Part shown: piece after piece, positions 1 to 20,317 of the stretch
How the letters are laid out: each line of letters begins with the position of its first letter
How positions within the stretch are numbered: the first letter of the stretch is position 1
NCBI RefSeq assembly: GCF_044324785.1
Contig: NZ_CP172127.1
Direction: 5' to 3' (one strand)
Length of the DNA stretch: 64,000 nucleotides
Source of the DNA: Escherichia coli
Lineage (GTDB): Bacteria; Pseudomonadota; Gammaproteobacteria; Enterobacterales; Enterobacteriaceae
The notes under the pieces: model-generated
What the model was told of the DNA's origin: nothing
Databases searched by the model: none
Seen by the model: the letters and a program-made list of their open reading frames with translations, nothing else
Made by a program: the position numbers and the translations under genes

Positions 1-1530
1 CTGTACCCAACCGTTTTGCGTAAAGACAAAACCGTCGAGATGCTCGCCAAAGTATTCCACCATGTCATTACGCTCGGCCTCGCCATGCACCAGCACATCC
101 AGACCTAAACGTTCCTGCTCAACAATGGCCTGCTTGATATGTTCCGCAATGCCCGTACGGTAGTTGTTGGCGTCGAGATTACCCTTTTTGAAATCCAGAC
201 GCAGGGTACGAATTTCCGTGGTTTGCGGGAAGGAACCAATCGTGGTGGTCGGCCACGCGGGCAGTTTAAAACGCGCACGCTGGGCTTCAGCACGCACTTC
301 ATAGACATTCGCACGCTGACTGTCCTGGGCGGTGATCGCCGCCAGACGCTTTTCTACCGCCGGATTATGGACACGGGTAGAGTGACGACGCGCCTGAATC
401 GGAGCGCTCCACTCTGCCAGAGCTGCCGTATCACCACTGTTCAGCGCATCGCGCAGTAGTGCCAGTTCGTGACATTTTTGTAGAGCGAAGGCAAACCAGC
501 TTTTCACTTCTGCATCAAGACGCGTTTCCACGCTCAGGTCGATGGGGCTGTGCAGCAGTGAGCAGGAAGATGCCACCCACAAATCACGTTTGCCGACAAA
601 GTCCTTAATTTGCGCATATTTCTCGGTAAGATCGGCGCGCCAGACGTTACGACCATTGATAAGACCCGCAGACAGTAGCCAGTCTGAAGGCAGACGCTTG
701 TGCAGTTCAGCAACGTCATCTTTACCATGTACAAGGTCCACATGCAGCCCCTGAACAGGCAGCGCAGTAATCGTGTCGAGATTTGGCGTTACGCCTTCAA
801 AATAGGTAGTCAGCAGCAGTTTCACCTGGCCCTGGAGCGCGTCGTAAGCGGGTTTGTATGCGTCCAGCCACGCCTGCGGCAGTTCCAGAACCAGCGCGGG
901 TTCGTCGATCTGTACCCACTCAATGCCGCGTTTTGCCAGTTCTGCCAGCACTTGCTGATAAACCGGCAGAATGTCGTTCAGCAGGCTAAGGCGATCAAAC
1001 TGTTCACCTTTCACTTTACCCAGCCACAGGTAGGTAATCGGCCCCAGCAGCACAGGTTTCACCTTGTGGCCCAGCGCCAGCGCCTCGTCCACTTCCTCCA
1101 GCAGCTGCGTCCAGGTCAGTTTGAACTGTTGGCCTTTAACGAACTCCGGCACCATGTAGTGATAGTTGGTGTTAAACCATTTGGTCATTTCCGCTGCCGC
1201 CGCAGGTTCGCCAGTCGGTGCACGTCCACGACCAATACGGAACAGGGTGTCGATATCTACCGAACCATCGTTGTTCTGATGACGTGGCGGAACATTACCC
1301 AGCAGCAGACTGGTGGTCAGTACATGATCGTACCAGGCAAAATCGCCCACCGGCAGCAGGTCGATACCCGCTTGCTTTTGTTGATCCCAGTGACGAGCAC
1401 GCAATTCACGCCCTACTGCCAGCAGTTCTTCACGCGTGGAGTTCCCCGCCCAATAACTCTCTTGCGCTTTTTTCAGCTCGCGACGCAGGCCAACGCGAGG
1501 GAAACCGAGGGTGTGATTAAGAATTGTCAT
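1..1530 (-). CDS. metE: Cobalamin-independent methionine synthase, N-terminal ~510 codons; the gene runs off the left edge of the window
   Basis: Reverse complement from 1530 translates to [35 protein letters not shown]..., which I recognise as the MetE N-terminus; start codon is 'cat' at 1528..1530 on the + strand. Absent from the ORF track only because it is truncated by the window edge. Confidence 0.92.
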
Positions 1531-1647
1531 TATATGCCCCTTATGGAATTTTTAGTATTTAGCCGTCCAGATGTTTACACATCCATAATTGGCGGTTACT
1601 GTATATTCCTCAAGCGCAAATTATTCATGCCGAAGTGAAGGACTTTC
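1531..1647. promoter_or_regulatory. metE-metR divergent control region (expected MetR activation site and MetJ boxes)
   Basis: 117-bp spacer between divergent metE and metR starts; contains near-palindromic 8-mers resembling the MetJ box AGACGTCT (e.g. 'ccgtccagatgtttacacatcc'). Exact operator positions not resolved. Confidence 0.5.
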
Positions 1648-8669: not shown

Positions 8670-9128
8670 TTAGCGTCTGGCTGGATAATGTTGGATGCTG
8701 GATTCCAGATTTGCCAGGATCAAAGCGACATCGGCATCCGCCAAACGAAATTCCGCCTGCCATATATTCTCTGACGTATGAAATGTAGGGCATAGCCCGC
8801 AAGCCAGTATCACTTTGATAATAATGACATCACCGGAATACCCTGTGTATTCGAACTCCAGGCATGGCTCGGTAAATTCCAGATTTTTCTCCGGGTAGCC
8901 ATCGGGAGAAGGGCGCTGCAACAATGTGGTAAACCACCTATGAAGCTTTGTTAAGTCATATGTCCCTATTGCCGGATCTATCTTTTCAAACCGCTGATTT
9001 CCCTGCGTCACGCCCACTTTGAGGAATAACCAGTTACCATCCCAGAAATTACTGGCATCAGGATACTGATACCCCATAACATCCAGCGTCAAAGTAACGG
9101 CCAGCTCACTATTGCTTAACGTAATCAT
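8670..9128 (-). CDS. Hypothetical 152-aa protein (candidate accessory gene between pldA and recQ)
   Basis: Intact ORF MITLSNSELAVTLTLDVMGYQYPDASNFWDGNWLFLKVG...; no signal peptide or transmembrane segment seen; does not match any protein I recognise; sits between two core genes. Confidence 0.55.
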   Translation of the reverse strand: MITLSNSELAVTLTLDVMGYQYPDASNFWDGNWLFLKVGVTQGNQRFEKIDPAIGTYDLTKLHRWFTTLLQRPSPDGYPEKNLEFTEPCLEFEYTGYSGDVIIIKVILACGLCPTFHTSENIWQAEFRLADADVALILANLESSIQHYPARR

Positions 9129-9176
9129 ATCATTTGATTTTTAAACAAAAATTAGGTGCTGGCACTCTACCATGCA

Positions 9177-12530: not shown

Positions 12531-12679
12531 TACAACCAGTTCTTCCGCTTAAAGTACAGATACGGTGCCAGGCCCGCGAGGATCATAAAGATAATCGCGC
12601 CAGGGTAGCCGAAACTCCACTTCAGTTCCGGCATAAACTCAAAGTTCATGCCATAGCTGGAGGCAATCCGCGTAGGAAA
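12530..12679 (-). pseudogene. corA: Displaced 3'-terminal fragment of corA (last ~48 codons, no start)
   Basis: ~150 bp that is a near copy of corA 14241..14390 (identical over the first 70 bp, a handful of mostly silent mismatches afterwards, then diverging); encodes ...[44 protein letters not shown], identical to the CorA C-terminus. The 67-aa ORF 12530..12733 is this fragment fused to unrelated upstream sequence. Confidence 0.85.
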
Positions 12680-12856
12680 AAGTTTCCTAATCGGTAAATT
12701 CAACATTTTGTTATTAACAATGAGCAAGACCAATCATTAACGACGTTCTCTTCAGAGATGTAATGAAAAAATGTGAAGTGTACTTCTTTTCTAAATATTT
12801 TTTTACCCTAGCATTTGTTCTCGAATTGATATTGAGCTTAAATATAACTAAGGCAA

Positions 12857-13711
12857 ATGCAAATGAATAACATATTACTTCCGCCAATTAATATTCCCTG
12901 TACACTTTTCGAAACTATTAGTTTATTCGATGATTTTTCTGCTGATGATATGCAATATGGTGATATGGTAGAACAAGACTTTCTCTCACTCGGCCTAAGC
13001 GATATCTCAGCAAAAGTTGATCCTTACCGACTTATTAAATACCATTTCCCTGGCCCAGGTTCTATTAATGTTGCTTTTAGTGCCTCAAGTTCCGGAACAA
13101 AAATATCACAACGTGAATGCACTGATATTTTATTTGCAGAAATGAAAGAACTAGCAAAAATGTTTTCCTTTTTTGGACAATATAAAACACTTATCGAAGA
13201 TCTGATTGAAAATTTTAGATATGGAAATGGCAGCAATTTTCATAGCCAACAATTAAATTTATCTTTTCATGAAAAAATAAATAAATATGGTTATAATAGT
13301 CCAATACGAATAATCAAAGAATGTATCGAAAATGGCATTAATTCAACTCCCTCGACAGGATACCAACCTCTTATCCTGCAAAGCATTAAAACCAAATTAC
13401 TTTCATCAAGACTAAATAAATTTAATGACTTCAAGGACAGTTTTAATGGCTTAGGAATCAGTGTTCATGATATTTCAGCTCAAAAAATATCTCTTTTAAG
13501 TTTTCAAAAATACGCTATAGGATGGAGTGCAACAATTCATTTTGTAGCACAGGACCACTTCGGTCTCGATGTAACTGATATCAAAAACAAGACTTATAGC
13601 AAATATAGATTTTTTCGCATATGGTTCTTTTTACAACGGCATAAAGACTTTGCTTTCAAACCTTTTTTCACCAATTTTAACACTATAGAAAGAATCGAAA
13701 ATTATCTATGA
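12857..13711 (+). CDS. Hypothetical 284-aa protein, no signal peptide (candidate toxin/effector or defence protein of an inserted cassette)
   Basis: Intact ORF in strongly AT-rich DNA; better Shine-Dalgarno spacing suggests the second ATG (12863, MNNILLPP...) may be the start; contains a Cys (QRECTD) and downstream His residues (SVHDIS, TIHFVAQDHFGLD); stop overlaps the start of the next ORF. Confidence 0.65.
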   Translation: MQMNNILLPPINIPCTLFETISLFDDFSADDMQYGDMVEQDFLSLGLSDISAKVDPYRLIKYHFPGPGSINVAFSASSSGTKISQRECTDILFAEMKELAKMFSFFGQYKTLIEDLIENFRYGNGSNFHSQQLNLSFHEKINKYGYNSPIRIIKECIENGINSTPSTGYQPLILQSIKTKLLSSRLNKFNDFKDSFNGLGISVHDISAQKISLLSFQKYAIGWSATIHFVAQDHFGLDVTDIKNKTYSKYRFFRIWFFLQRHKDFAFKPFFTNFNTIERIENYL

Positions 13712-14199
13712 AAAGCAAACTCCAGAAAATTATATTATGTTTATTTCTTCTATGCTGCATCTATAATTTATGGACATTGCGTCCTGTACAGATTTTGTAT
13801 ACATACTCTGATGCTGGCAATTCAGTCTTTCTGGTCGTTGATCATCTGCCATGGACTGACAGCGATAAAATAAATTGGTATCTGAAGCATCAGAATGAAA
13901 TTAAAAATCAACATCCCCTACCAGAAGGTAGTTGGCATACCTGGTATGTCATTGATATCGGTAATGGCTTCACTGACTATAAAAAATATATTGAAGGGCC
14001 GTATGAAGATCTCTACTGTTTCCCGACAATTAAGAGCAATGATAATTGCATCGTGAAAAATTACTTAATGGTTATTAATGAATACCCTTATCGTAACACT
14101 CATATTGGTATTAACGATTTTACTGAGTATCAATTAACACAAGAAAATAAAATAGAGCGAGTTTTCAATCCGCATGACTTTAAAAAAGACAATTTTTAG
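13708..14199 (+). CDS. Hypothetical 163-aa protein with N-terminal signal/anchor segment (candidate immunity or partner protein)
   Basis: MKSKLQKIILCLFLLCCIYNLWTL... hydrophobic N-terminus; start ATG overlaps the upstream stop (ATGA at 13708..13711), implying translational coupling; AT-rich. Confidence 0.65.
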   Translation: MKSKLQKIILCLFLLCCIYNLWTLRPVQILYTYSDAGNSVFLVVDHLPWTDSDKINWYLKHQNEIKNQHPLPEGSWHTWYVIDIGNGFTDYKKYIEGPYEDLYCFPTIKSNDNCIVKNYLMVINEYPYRNTHIGINDFTEYQLTQENKIERVFNPHDFKKDNF

Positions 14200-14205
14200 A
14201 AATAA

Positions 14206-14233
14206 GCCGGATAAAAAAATAGCTTTATCCGGC
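14206..14233. terminator. Hairpin between convergent cassette ORF and corA (putative bidirectional terminator)
   Basis: Inverted repeat 'gccggataaa ... tttatccggc' with an A-rich loop. Confidence 0.5.
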
Positions 14234-14240
14234 ACTCATA

Positions 14241-15191
14241 TTACAACCAGTTCTTCCGCTTAAAGTACAGATACGGTGCCAGGCCCGCGAGGATCATAAA
14301 GATAATCGCGCCTGGGTAGCCGAAACTCCACTTCAGTTCTGGCATAAACTCAAAGTTCATCCCGTAGCTGGAAGCAACCAGCGTCGGTGGCAGGAACACC
14401 ACGGATACCACCGAGAAGATTTTGATGATGCGGTTCTGCTCGATGTTGATAAAGCCCATAGCCGCCTGCATCAGGAAGTTCACCTTCTGGAACAGGGATT
14501 CGTTATGCGGCAGCAGGGATTCGATATCTCGCAGGATTTCACGCGCCTGCTCCAGTTGCCCACCCGGTAAGCGTGCTTTACGTACCAGGAAGTTGAGCGC
14601 GCGCTGGGTATCCATCAGACACAGGCGAACTTTCCAGCCGATATCTTCCAGTTCCGCCAGCGTGGAGAGCGCCTCGTCGTACTCATCGCCCTGATGCCCT
14701 TCCATAATTACCCGGCTCAACTGCTCCAGGTCGCTGTAGATATTTTCAATTTCATCTGCCAACTGTTCGATTTTGGTTTCGAACAGATCCAGCAGCAGCT
14801 CGTAGGCATTACCGTCTACCATCGACTGGCTACGGGCACGCATACGATACAGACGGAATGCAGGCAATTCACGCTCACGCAGAGTAAACAGACGACCATC
14901 ACGGATGGTAAATGCCACAGTGGAGTTACCGGCGTGATCTTCCGCATCTTCAAAGAAGAAGAAGGAGTGAATATGCAGGCCGTCATCGTCTTCAAAGAAA
15001 CGTGCCGATGCTTCGATGTCTTCCAGTTCCGGGCGGGTTGCCAGGCTCTGGCCAAGTTCAGATTGTACGCGCAGTCGCTCGTCGTCGTCCGGTTCGACAA
15101 GATCAATCCATACTGCATTTACAAGGGGTTGTGACTCTTCGACTTCCAGCCGGGTCAGTCGGTTATTTTCCAGTTGAAATGCGCTCAGCAT
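14241..15191 (-). CDS. corA: Mg2+/Co2+ transporter CorA
   Basis: Start placed at [31 protein letters not shown]... (316 aa); C-terminal GMN motif ([11 protein letters not shown]); 'cat' at 15189..15191. Confidence 0.93.
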
Positions 15192-15560: not shown

Positions 15561-16325
15561 ATGGCGCATCGGCTACTCATTGGTAAAGGAATGATCACCT
15601 TGAATCTCAAACGGATTTTTCTCGCCCTCACCTTACTTCCCTTGTTTGCTGTTGCCGCTGATGATTGCGCACTCTCAGATCCGACGCTGACCGTACAGGC
15701 GTATACCGTTAATCCTCAAACAGAGCGGGTGAAAATATACTGGCAAAAAGCCAATGGCGAAGCGTGGGGAACGTTACATGCTCTGCTGGCGGATATGAAT
15801 AGTCAGGGTCAGGTGCAGATGGCGATGAACGGCGGCATCTATGATGAAAGCTATGCGCCGCTCGGTTTGTACATCGAAAACGGTCAGCAGAAGGTGGCGT
15901 TAAATCTCGCTTCAGGTGAAGGGAATTTCTTTATTCGTCCTGGCGGCGTGTTTTATGTCGCGGGAGATAAAATCGGCATCGTTCGTCTGGATGCCTTTAA
16001 AACCAGTAAAGAGATTCAGTTTGCGGTGCAGTCAGGGCCAATGTTGATGGAAAACGGCGTAATTAATCCGCGTATTCATCCCAACGTCGCCTCACGTAAA
16101 ATTCGTAACGGTGTTGGGATTAATAAACAAGGGAACGCCGTGTTTTTGTTGAGCAAGCAGGCGACAAATTTTTATGATTTTGCCTGTTATGCCAAAGCGA
16201 AACTGAACGTTGAGCAGCTGCTTTATCTTGATGGCACGATTTCACATATGTATATGAAAGGCGGGGCAATCCCGTGGCAACGCTATCCTTTTGTCACCAT
16301 GATTTCCGTCGAGCGGAAAGGTTAA
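15561..16325 (+). CDS. yigE: DUF2233-family secreted protein
   Basis: 254-aa ORF with signal peptide (…LALTLLPLFAVAADD); conserved position divergent from corA. Confidence 0.8.
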   Translation: MAHRLLIGKGMITLNLKRIFLALTLLPLFAVAADDCALSDPTLTVQAYTVNPQTERVKIYWQKANGEAWGTLHALLADMNSQGQVQMAMNGGIYDESYAPLGLYIENGQQKVALNLASGEGNFFIRPGGVFYVAGDKIGIVRLDAFKTSKEIQFAVQSGPMLMENGVINPRIHPNVASRKIRNGVGINKQGNAVFLLSKQATNFYDFACYAKAKLNVEQLLYLDGTISHMYMKGGAIPWQRYPFVTMISVERKG

Positions 16326-16407
16326 GCATTGTACACTCGAGGAGGCCAGACAAACTGGGGCTGGCTACACAGCTGGAAAATCATCAGATAAATGAAGGGA
16401 AACAAAA

Positions 16408-17310
16408 ATGAAAAAAACGCTCGCAACGTTATTTTTATTAACGTGTCTGGGATCATCATCCGCTTATGCGGATAACGCTTTGATTTTACAAACTGATTTT
16501 AGCCTGAAAGATGGTGCCGTCTCGGCGATGAAAGGGGTCGCATTCGGTGTTGACCATAATCTTAAAATATTTGATTTAACACACGAAATTCCACCGTATA
16601 ACATCTGGGAAGGCGCTTACCGCCTGTATCAGACCGCCAGTTACTGGCCGCAAGGTTCGGTATTTGTCAGTGTGGTCGATCCTGGTGTTGGTACAGACCG
16701 TAAATCGGTAGTGCTGAAAACCAAAAACGGTCAATACTTCGTTTCACCAGATAACGGTACGCTCACTTTGGTGGCACAAACTCTGGGTATTGATAGCGTC
16801 CGGGAAATCGACGAAAAAGCTAACCGCCTGAAAGGTTCTGAAAAGTCATATACCTTCCACGGTCGTGACGTGTATGCCTACACCGGTGCGCGTCTGGCTT
16901 CCGGGGCGATTACGTTCGAACAGGTGGGGCCAGAGCTTCCTGCAAAAGTTGTCGAACTTTCTTATCAGAAAGCAAAAGCAACAAAAGGTGAAGTGAAGGG
17001 CAATATCCCGATTCTCGATATTCAGTACGGCAACGTCTGGAGCAATATCAGCGACGAGTTGCTGAATCAGGCAGGAATCAAACTCAACGACACGTTGTGT
17101 GTGACCATTTCCGAAGGTTCCCAGCAAAAATACGCAGGGAAAATGCCGTATGTCGCAAGCTTCGGCGATGTGCCGGAAGGCCAGCCGATGGTGTATCTGA
17201 ACAGCTTGTTGAATGTTTCCGTGGCGCTGAATATGGATAATTTTGCGCAGAAACATCAGGTTGCGTCTGGTGCTGACTGGAATATTGATGTGAAGAAGTG
17301 CGCTAAGTAA
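16408..17310 (+). CDS. SAM hydroxide adenosyltransferase (DUF62) family protein with N-terminal signal peptide
   Basis: 300-aa ORF; signal peptide MKKTLATLFLLTCLGSSSAYA; then LILQTDFSLKDGAVSAMKGVAFGVD...THEIPPYNI...VSVVDPGVGTDRKSVVLKTKNGQYFVSPDNGTL, which matches the DUF62 N-domain pattern as I remember it. Confidence 0.7.
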   Translation: MKKTLATLFLLTCLGSSSAYADNALILQTDFSLKDGAVSAMKGVAFGVDHNLKIFDLTHEIPPYNIWEGAYRLYQTASYWPQGSVFVSVVDPGVGTDRKSVVLKTKNGQYFVSPDNGTLTLVAQTLGIDSVREIDEKANRLKGSEKSYTFHGRDVYAYTGARLASGAITFEQVGPELPAKVVELSYQKAKATKGEVKGNIPILDIQYGNVWSNISDELLNQAGIKLNDTLCVTISEGSQQKYAGKMPYVASFGDVPEGQPMVYLNSLLNVSVALNMDNFAQKHQVASGADWNIDVKKCAK

Positions 17311-17319
17311 GGTGCTGAT

Positions 17320-17350
17320 GCGGAATGCGGTGTGGCGCACCGCATTCCGC
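17320..17350. terminator. Perfect 31-bp palindrome between convergent 16408..17310 gene and uvrD
   Basis: 'gcggaatgcggtg tggcg caccgcattccgc'; no clear U-run, so could be a terminator or a REP-like structural element. Confidence 0.4.
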
Positions 17351-17354
17351 AACG

Positions 17355-19517
17355 TCACACCGTCTCCAACCGGGCGTAAGCCGCCACCAGCCATTTAATA
17401 CCCTGGCCCTGGAACGCCACCTGCAAACGGCTATGCTCACCGCTGCCTTCCATATTGACGATGGTGCCTTCACCAAACTTAGCGTGGCGTACGCGCTGGC
17501 CGAGCTTGTAGCCGCTGTCGTTCTCGACCATCGGCGTACCCATCCGTTGATGGCTGACCGGGCGGCTTACCGTGGCGCGCAGGCGCACCTCTTCCACACA
17601 CTCTTCCGGCAACTCACCGATAAAGCGCGACGGGCGATGGTAAACCTCTTTGCCATACAGACGGCGGGTTTCCGCGTAGGTCAGCGTCAGTTTCTGCATC
17701 GCGCGGGTTACGCCAACGTAGGCCAGACGGCGTTCTTCTTCCAGACGTCCGCCTTCATCCAGCGACATCTGACTTGGGAACATACCCTCTTCCATACCGA
17801 CGATAAACACCTGCGGGAACTCCAGCCCTTTCGCCGAGTGTAGCGTCATCAACTGCACCGCGTCCTGCCAGGTATCCGCCTGCCCTTCACCTGCTTCCAG
17901 TGCCGCATGGGAGAGGAACGCCTGCAGCGGCATTAAATCTTCGTCTTCTTCGTTGTAGCTGAACTGGCGCGTCGCCGTCACCAGTTCCTCCAGGTTTTCG
18001 ATACGCGTCTGACCTTTTTCGCCCTTCTCCTGCTCGTACATGGTGCGCAAGCCGGAGTCTTTAATTACCCGGTCAGTCTGTACATGCAGCGGCATATCGG
18101 CAGTTTCCTGCGCTAAGGCGTCGATCAGTTCCATAAACCGTTGCAAGGCACTGGCAGCACGTCCGGCGAGGGCTTTTTCCTGCAACAGTTCACGACATGC
18201 CTGCCAGAGTGTTAACTGACGATCGCGCGATGTCTGACGTACCACGTCCAGCGTCCGGTCACCAATACCCCGCGTTGGCGTATTCACCACGCGCTCAAAC
18301 GCCGCGTCGTCGTTGCGGTTGGCAATCAGGCGCAGATACGAGAGCGCGTCTTTGATTTCCTGGCGTTCGAAGAAGCGCATCCCGCCGTAAATACGGTACG
18401 GCATACTCGCCTGCAACAGTGCTTCTTCCAGCACACGCGACTGGGCGTTACTGCGGTAGAGAATGGCGCACTCGGCGAGCGCCCCGCCGTTGTCCTGCCA
18501 GGTCTTGATACGGTTAACCACAAAACGCGCTTCGTCGAGTTCGTTAAAAGCGCAATAGAGGGAAATCGGCTCACCGTCCGCGCCATCGGTCCACAGTTTT
18601 TTACCCAGACGCCCGTTGTTGTTTTCAATCAGGGCGTTAGCGGCGCTCAGAATATTGCTGGTAGAGCGGTAGTTTTGCTCCAGACGAATAGTTTCGGCAC
18701 CGGGGAAATCATTAAGGAAACGCTGAATATTCTCCACCTGCGCCCCGCGCCAGCCGTAGATTGACTGGTCGTCATCGCCAACGATCATCACTTTGCCGGT
18801 GTCGCCCGCCAGCAGGCGGATCCACGCGTACTGAATGTTGTTGGTATCCTGGAATTCGTCCACCAGGATGTTAGTAAAACGTTCGCGGTAGTGTTGCAGG
18901 ATATGCGGCTTGTTAAGCCACAACTCGTGAGCACGTAGCAGCAGCTCGGCGAAGTCCACCAGGCCCGCGCGGTCACACGCTTCCTGATACGCCTGATACA
19001 CCTTCTGCCAGGTCTGCTCCACCGGATTACCGTAGCTTTGAATATGATGTGGACGCAGGCCTTCATCTTTCTGGCTGTTGATGTACCACATTGCCTGGCG
19101 CGGCGGCCACTGCTTCTCGTCGAGGTTCATCGCCTTGATTAGGCGTTTGAGCAGGCGTAGCTGGTCCTCGCTGTCGAGGATCTGAAAATCCTGCGGCAGA
19201 TTGGCGTCCATATGGTGCGCACGCAGCAGACGGTGCGCCAGCCCGTGGAAGGTGCCGACCCACATGCCGCCCTGGCTGGTGCCCATCAGCTGCCCGATAC
19301 GATGACGCATCTCCGCCGCCGCTTTGTTGGTAAACGTTACCGCCATAATCGAGTATGGCGAGCAGTTTTCCACGCTCATCAGCCAGGCGATACGATGCAC
19401 CAATACGCGCGTCTTACCACTGCCCGCGCCCGCCAGCACCAGAAGGTTGCTGCGTGGCGCGGCCACCGCTTCGCGCTGTTTGTCATTAAGGCTGTCGAGC
19501 AGGTAAGAAACGTCCAT
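17355..19517 (-). CDS. uvrD: DNA helicase II (UvrD)
   Basis: The ORF extends to 19703, but the start is placed at [38 protein letters not shown]... (720 aa); 'cat' at 19515..19517; SF1 helicase motifs. Confidence 0.93.
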   Translation of the reverse strand: MDVSYLLDSLNDKQREAVAAPRSNLLVLAGAGSGKTRVLVHRIAWLMSVENCSPYSIMAVTFTNKAAAEMRHRIGQLMGTSQGGMWVGTFHGLAHRLLRAHHMDANLPQDFQILDSEDQLRLLKRLIKAMNLDEKQWPPRQAMWYINSQKDEGLRPHHIQSYGNPVEQTWQKVYQAYQEACDRAGLVDFAELLLRAHELWLNKPHILQHYRERFTNILVDEFQDTNNIQYAWIRLLAGDTGKVMIVGDDDQSIYGWRGAQVENIQRFLNDFPGAETIRLEQNYRSTSNILSAANALIENNNGRLGKKLWTDGADGEPISLYCAFNELDEARFVVNRIKTWQDNGGALAECAILYRSNAQSRVLEEALLQASMPYRIYGGMRFFERQEIKDALSYLRLIANRNDDAAFERVVNTPTRGIGDRTLDVVRQTSRDRQLTLWQACRELLQEKALAGRAASALQRFMELIDALAQETADMPLHVQTDRVIKDSGLRTMYEQEKGEKGQTRIENLEELVTATRQFSYNEEDEDLMPLQAFLSHAALEAGEGQADTWQDAVQLMTLHSAKGLEFPQVFIVGMEEGMFPSQMSLDEGGRLEEERRLAYVGVTRAMQKLTLTYAETRRLYGKEVYHRPSRFIGELPEECVEEVRLRATVSRPVSHQRMGTPMVENDSGYKLGQRVRHAKFGEGTIVNMEGSGEHSRLQVAFQGQGIKWLVAAYARLETV

Positions 19518-19575
19518 TGGCACCGCCGCGTAAAAATAGGTTGGGCGGAGAAGCGCAACGCCCTCCGCCAAAAAG

Positions 19576-19591
19576 CTGGGTATATATACAG
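19576..19591 (-). promoter_or_regulatory. LexA operator (SOS box) of uvrD
   Basis: Minus-strand CTGTATATATACCCAG fits CTG-N10-CAG with a TA-rich core, ~60 bp upstream of the uvrD start. Confidence 0.8.
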
Positions 19592-19600
19592 ATTTGCTGA

Positions 19601-20317
19601 TTATATCAGCGAGGTCAGAGATGCCAACCGGGAAATTTCCAGATGCGGGAGTAAACGGCTGTCCCAGGTTTGCATCAGATCGCCATTTTCCGGTCTGATC
19701 CAACAGGCCTGCATTCCGCTGCGAATTGCCCCACCCACGTCAGTGGTGAGATCGTCCCCGACATGTAAGATCTCGCCGATCGGCACGTTGAGTTTTTCCG
19801 CCGCCAGGAAGTACATATCGCTGAACGGTTTTGAGCGCCCGTGCGGGCCAGCGCGCAACACAAACTCAAAATAATCCCCTAAACCAAACAGCTCCGGCTG
19901 GGCGTTACCGTTGGTGATCGCCACCAGCGGCCATTTCTTCGCCAGCTGTTTTAAGGTGTCGTGGGTTTGCTGCGGGACCTCGATCCGGCTGCGCCATTTG
20001 GCAAAGTTGATCATTGCTGCATGTGCGCCTGCACTGGCTTCTTCGGCACTCAACCCGGCGTCGAGCATCGCTTGTTCAATCGAACGAAAACGCCAGCGCG
20101 TCACGTCGTGATAAATCTCGGGTTCCGCTTCCCGTACCGCCTGGCGCAGGCGTTGCAGATCTTCATTCTGGAAGCTGCGCAGCGCCGGATGGTAATTTTG
20201 CACAAAGGTAAGCGCCTCTCGCTCGGTGCGCAAAATCACCGGACGGTTATCGTAAAGGGTATCATCCAGGTCAAAGGTGAGCGCCGAGATGCGCCCCAAA
20301 GGCCGGTAAAAACGCAT
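19601..20317 (-). CDS. yigB: HAD-family phosphatase (FMN/5-amino-6-ribitylamino-uracil phosphate phosphatase)
   Basis: 238-aa ORF with HAD motif ([10 protein letters not shown]); last gene of the lptM-dapF-yigA-xerC-yigB operon. Confidence 0.88.

Follow-up and report, generated by a model that had tools for sequence, protein, structure and literature searches.

On the minus strand of the 64-kb window, the whole stretch of DNA analysed here, yigB (19601..20317, 238 aa) lies upstream of the co-oriented uvrD (17355..19517, 720 aa plus stop), which encodes DNA helicase II and is the regulated gene of this study. Both coding sequences come from the open reading frame list and from RefSeq, where matching records label the stretch as yigB and 'uvrD: DNA helicase II'; a match is present in 5425 of 5426 complete E. 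coli genomes. The order xerC, yigB, uvrD is the same in K-12, to which the window is ~97% identical in the opposite orientation. With this annotation, yigB upstream and 97% identity to K-12 over the region, the downstream gene named in the first-pass annotation is indeed uvrD.

The spacer between the two genes measures 83 bp and contains the uvrD LexA box. Read directly, the minus strand at 19591..19576 is CTGTATATATACCCAG, a 16-mer core of the form CTG-N10-CAG with an A/T-rich spacer. The full 20-mer operator (SOS box), ATCTGTATATATACCCAGCT, occupies 19593..19574 on the minus strand and is assigned from its sequence, its score on a held-out position weight matrix (PWM), its identity to the published uvrD box and its conservation among orthologues. 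The uvrD start codon lies at 19517..19515, leaving 58 nt between the 16-mer and the ATG, and the 20-mer begins at -76. The first-pass annotation had placed the box sequence on the minus strand at 19576-19591, about 60 bp upstream of the uvrD start; its coordinates and strand are exact, and its distance is correct.

A 25-mer, AAATCTGTATATATACCCAGCTTTT, is tabulated as the LexA motif upstream of UV-induced uvrD in E. coli (PMC3009722). The K-12 uvrD SOS box is identical to the one studied here over this 25-mer, with the same placement relative to yigB and uvrD. Over 161 aligned nucleotides, the window and K-12 differ at a single base, inside yigB and outside the box. The element itself thus carries no difference, and the surrounding chromosome, ~97% identical, differs by three small insertions elsewhere in the window.

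The insertion nearest to uvrD, ~0.9 kb at 16325..17332, lies between the uvrD stop codon and yigE. It carries a plus-strand open reading frame (16408..17310, 300 aa) of the SAM hydroxide adenosyltransferase family (PF01887 and PF20257), whose scores fall short of the (R)-SAM hydrolase equivalog cut-offs in NCBIfam. Downstream of corA, an insertion of ~1.5 kb (12666..14241) holds a two-gene cassette whose reading frames overlap by 4 nt (12857..13711 and 13708..14199, both plus), encoding a DUF3289 / YPO3983-family protein (TIGR03034, 436 bits) and a DUF943 membrane protein; in its layout the cassette resembles a toxin/immunity pair. The third, ~0.45 kb at 8716..9163 between pldA and recQ, is associated with a minus-strand reading frame at 8670..9128 for a 152-aa WapI-like immunity-family protein (PF24716). 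No toxin gene adjoins it, and it may be an orphan immunity gene.

Promoter geometry at the box

A consensus scan of 19300..19900 returns a single sigma-70-like promoter, on the minus strand, with a TTGGCA -35 element, a 16-nt spacer and an extended -10 element of the form TG-n-TATAAT, matching 11 of 12 hexamer positions. The predicted -35 element (19622..19627) lies within yigB, at the 3' end of its coding sequence, and the last codons of this gene hold the uvrD promoter. The predicted extended -10 element, TGaTATAAT (19600..19608), overlaps the yigB stop codon TAA (19603..19601). In Enterobacteriaceae the TTGGCA hexamer is invariant, although the coding constraint on yigB acts there too.

The LexA 20-mer starts 7 nt past the -10 hexamer, and the predicted transcription start, at about 19595-19592, coincides with the first bases of the 20-mer. 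Since the box begins where the start is expected, bound LexA would cover approximately +1 to +20; both the start position and this footprint are inferred from the promoter geometry. Like other gammaproteobacterial LexA operators, such as those of recA, lexA, dinI, sulA and umuDC (consensus TACTGTATATATATACAGTA), the uvrD box is a CTG-N10-CAG palindrome with an A/T spacer that lies within or adjoins the core promoter. Its CCAG right half is shared with the recN, dinI, ruvA, cho, uvrB and dinB boxes. Unlike other LexA operators, however, it sits downstream of the -10 element and over the predicted start, and the basal expression of its gene is high and partly LexA-independent.

Statistical strength of the site

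Table 4 of PMC3009722 supplied 18 E. coli LexA boxes, of which that of uvrD was set aside to avoid circularity. The other 17 gave a symmetrised log-odds PWM, with which the site was scored, and a Lewis-type heterology index (HI). On this held-out matrix, the uvrD 20-mer scores 16.3 bits and is the top match in the window, with the runner-up at 12.3 bits. Among 6.4 million positions in 100 first-order Markov replicas, 6 reached at least 16.3 bits, corresponding to ~0.06 expected per 64 kb. The PWM scan that had been proposed as a check therefore returns a high score, the best in the window.

The runner-up lies at 1597..1616 on the plus strand (TACTGTATATTCCTCAAGCG), in the metR-metE divergent promoter region. 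Only its left half-site is good, the right half reading CAAG; it was rejected as a LexA box and is probably a chance match.

Relative to known operators, the uvrD box falls within the training ranges for both measures (16.3 bits against 13.0-29.0; HI 7.8 against 0.1-8.9) and towards their weak end. Sixteen of the 17 training sites score 17-29 bits and just one scores below the uvrD box, which makes it weaker than most E. coli LexA boxes. Its HI of 7.8 on our own matrix ranks 14th of 18 boxes; the published value is 8.5 (PMC11228462). The box matches 14 of 16 core positions of CTGTATATATATACAG and 14 of 20 positions of the longer consensus. With these matches, the first-pass description of the operator as near-consensus is slightly generous. 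The uvrD box is a real operator, but one of only moderate to weak strength.

Bare consensus patterns do not discriminate on their own and were therefore replaced by the held-out PWM, which does. The window contains 26 matches to CTGT-N8-ACAG with at most one mismatch, against 18.3 expected, and 23 matches to CTG-N10-CAG, against 13.6 expected, a count reached by none of 100 shuffles. This abundance is the one point in favour of regarding the box as a chance AT-rich palindrome with no LexA role. Against it, the uvrD site is the sole CTG-N10-CAG match in the window whose spacer is A/T throughout, and its PWM score, expected only ~0.06 times per window, lies in the validated range.

The excess of CTG-N10-CAG matches across the window may itself reflect codon usage for CTG and CAG.

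Conservation among relatives and within E. coli

Conservation was surveyed at 80 uvrD loci from Enterobacterales, Vibrionales and Alteromonadales, one genome per species, with the uvrD start set at locus position 1501. Within the 300 nt upstream of uvrD, the held-out PWM finds a match of at least 10 bits in 73 loci and of at least 12 bits in 67. The coding controls, for which each locus contributed its best matches in at most seven coding windows of 300 nt, reach these thresholds in 1/80 and 0/80 loci, respectively. Three further loci (L011, L012, L026) score below 10 bits yet carry a CTG-N10-CAG box at the expected place, at 6.5-9.3 bits. In all, 76 of 80 species, drawn from three gammaproteobacterial orders, have a LexA-type box in the same orientation upstream of uvrD.

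No LexA box was found upstream of uvrD in the remaining four loci, three from Shewanella (L060, L078, L080) and one from Xenorhabdus ehlersii (L038). The Xenorhabdus locus retains a TATAAT and, where the box is expected, a decayed relic, AAATCTATATAAAAATATTA. This pattern suggests lineage-specific loss of uvrD SOS control in these four loci.

Within E. coli, 5365 of 5425 genomes show at least 99% identity over the 86-nt stretch that spans promoter, box and leader hairpin, so that the box is essentially invariant in the species as well as widespread among relatives, the second check that had been proposed for it. Across Enterobacteriaceae, the box forms an island of identity within a leader that is otherwise divergent and unalignable.

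The survey yields 69 distinct sites, all in a single orientation, and a box-anchored profile that is partly circular because its sites were chosen with the PWM. In this profile, positions 4-5 (TG) and 16-18 (CAG) do not vary, and the left triplet reads CTG in 42 sites, ATG in 16, TTG in 9 and GTG in 2. A recognisable -10 hexamer accompanies 55 of the 69, mostly ending 6 or 9-10 nt before the box.

In nearly all Vibrionaceae loci surveyed (L046-L079), the uvrD ATG follows the box by 26-41 nt. The promoter-proximal half of the boxes in this family is mostly ATG or TTG rather than CTG (for example CATTGTATAAATAACCAGTA), but their distal CAG does not vary. The V. cholerae uvrD box occupies the orthologous position, just after a TATAAT -10 element and in the same orientation, and has been examined experimentally through box mutation and a lexA(ind-) allele (PMC4439123). 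According to that study the site is functional, despite the departure of the family from the supposedly invariant CTG.

Together, the null statistics of the PWM and the recurrence of the box at one place and in one orientation (76 of 80 species, with 1 of 80 among the controls) effectively refute a chance palindrome. The experimental validation of the V. cholerae orthologue also speaks against it, and we regard that explanation as almost certainly wrong.

A possible tandem promoter within the box

Two uvrD promoters have been described in E. coli, of which one is constitutive and the other LexA-governed and inducible 3-6-fold, and two are also reported in V. cholerae, where the LexA site overlaps the -10 element of one (PMC4439123). 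These reports favour a reading in which the TGTATA(A/T)AT half of the box is kept mainly as the -10 element of a second, tandem uvrD promoter, which LexA would repress by covering it and not by occupying +1 to +20 of the upstream promoter. Positions 6-12 of the orthologous boxes (TATAAAT) point the same way, being conserved more strongly than the LexA PWM alone requires in the partly circular, box-anchored profile.

Other observations fit this reading less well. By inspection, the E. coli box contains no hexamer that combines an A in second place with a T in sixth. In the scan of 19300..19900, the upstream promoter is the sole site above threshold, and the second, constitutive promoter was not located. 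A -10 role would not explain the distal CAG, 10 nt away, which is invariant in 69/69 distinct sites. Furthermore, the dinI box of E. coli likewise has CTGTATAAATAACCAG at its core, so the central bases fit LexA preference. We thus consider it rather unlikely that the half-box is kept mainly as a -10 element, although the box could serve both as a tandem -10 element and as an operator.

The leader hairpin

Between the box and the start codon, the minus strand encodes a GC-rich stem-loop, GGCGGAG-GGCGTTGCGCTT-CTCCGCC with a loop of 12 nt, at 19544..19569, extendable to 19572..19541, identified from RNA folding and as an inverted repeat. The centroid structure of the 96-nt leader has a predicted energy of -15.8 kcal/mol, although the E. 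coli leader as a whole is not more stable than its shuffles (z = +0.55). A run of five T residues (19532..19536, minus) forms a weak terminator-like tail 7 nt past the core stem and 4 nt past the extended stem. This hairpin is missed by the terminator scan, which requires a T run within 0-2 nt of the stem. The sole site reported by the scan lies on the opposite strand inside the uvrD coding sequence and was disregarded. An Rfam scan of 19300..19800, with E values up to 1, finds no known RNA family in the leader.

Among 36 distinct Enterobacterales leaders, 30 contain a hairpin of -8 kcal/mol or below, with a mean z of -1.0 against dinucleotide shuffles and 86% of values below zero. At least five T residues within 12 nt after the hairpin occur in just 6 of the 36. 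The Vibrionaceae leaders are much shorter than that of E. coli, mostly 11-26 nt after the box, which is too short for a hairpin, and they lack one.

The hairpin also bears some likeness to REP elements. Its tail, CTTCTCCGCCCAAC, differs by 3 mismatches from the REP stem/tail signature (…CTTATCCGGCCTAC); such matches number 7 in the window against 3.8 expected, which is weakly supportive. In three Enterobacter-type leaders (L004, L015, L019; about locus positions 1395..1470), a REP-like palindrome, GGCGGATGGCG..TTATCCGCC-CTAC, can be aligned with the E. coli hairpin sequence GGCGGAGGGCGTTGCGCTTCTCCGCC-CAAC. The copies in these leaders are closer to REP than the E. coli hairpin is (…TTATCCGCCCTAC then GTAGGCCCGGTAAGCGAAGCGCC…), and a second, clear REP, GTAGGCCCGGTAAGCGAAGCGCCACCGGGC, follows the palindrome there.

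The title of Easton and Kushner 1983 names attenuation at uvrD and implies LexA binding; going by that title, the leader hairpin is probably the attenuator meant. An attenuator role and a REP origin for the E. coli hairpin are both plausible but unproven. A joint account would treat the hairpin as a decayed REP-type palindrome, with Enterobacterales keeping some hairpin through sequence turnover, in some lineages as full REP pairs, and Vibrionaceae having none. The leader would then form a lineage-specific second layer on an ancient LexA promoter, whose box may double as a tandem -10 element. We offer this combined account tentatively, as one that is less likely than not.

Induction and basal expression of uvrD

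The membership of uvrD in the LexA regulon, with which the first pass had judged the site consistent, agrees with published tables that give the exact box sequence (PMC3009722) and with a review listing that includes uvrD among SOS genes (PMC6590174). For E. coli, LexA control of uvrD is credited to Arthur and Eastlake 1983 and Finch and Emmerson 1983, as these are cited in PMC4439123. A further review (PMC12448304) yielded nothing relevant on ChIP evidence for LexA at uvrD.

Reported responses vary in size. In E. coli, induction is small, at 2.1x and 1.7x (PMC11228462), and uvrD behaves as an 'early' SOS promoter that peaks at 35-38 min at all UV doses (PMC5999292), a timing that fits a weak operator. 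In Salmonella, where the box lies 105 nt from the ATG with an HI of 11.5, nalidixic acid induces uvrD 13.9x, and the basal ON cells are LexA-independent (PMC8072944). In V. cholerae, a non-cleavable lexA(ind-) allele cuts uvrD expression 3-fold, and disruption of the box raises expression (PMC4439123).

These figures bear on a further explanation, in which uvrD expression is set mainly by read-through from dapF-yigA-xerC-yigB together with attenuation at the leader hairpin, and the LexA box is a minor modulator. The upstream genes share the strand of uvrD and are separated by short gaps or overlap, and the induction of only ~2x in E. coli, the LexA-independent basal expression in Salmonella, the attenuation invoked in the 1983 title and the frequency of stable hairpins in Enterobacterales leaders are all in keeping with it. 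However, a dedicated near-consensus promoter lies directly upstream of the box. The ~3-fold shifts in V. cholerae and the induction of up to 13.9x in Salmonella also count against this explanation, as do the E. coli hairpin, which is unexceptional against shuffles, and the T-rich tail, which is present in only 6 of the 36 leaders. We consider this explanation improbable.

Discussion

We assign the 20-mer at 19593..19574 on the minus strand as the LexA operator of the E. coli uvrD promoter, with a probability of about 0.95. The box statistics, the predicted promoter geometry and the conservation are results of the present analysis, whereas LexA dependence and inducibility are taken from the literature.

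On this assignment, the mechanism with the best support is classical SOS repression. A LexA dimer would bind the two CTG/CAG half-sites and, positioned on approximately +1 to +20, would block RNA polymerase at open complex formation or at exit, a mode of occlusion that we infer from the geometry. LexA may also cover the -10-like TATATA within the box, possibly that of a second, tandem promoter. Upon DNA damage, RecA on single-stranded DNA would promote LexA self-cleavage and relieve repression. As a moderate to weak site (HI about 8), the uvrD operator would be emptied early, and transcription would then climb a few-fold over a substantial basal level. Within the 76-nt leader, partial termination (attenuation) at the GC-rich hairpin probably provides a further level of control.

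The high basal level of uvrD can be accounted for by the weakness of the operator together with LexA-independent transcription. UvrD has housekeeping roles in mismatch repair and excision repair. High basal expression fits these roles.

The uvrD box is already known: the gene has been counted in the LexA regulon since 1983, and the exact box appears in published tables. The value of the site here is that of a positive control, a true regulatory site having been recognised from raw sequence with the right coordinates and strand.

From Escherichia to Vibrio and Alteromonas, uvrD has kept a promoter layout in which the LexA box comes after the -10 hexamer, and the leader downstream of the box is evolutionarily fluid.
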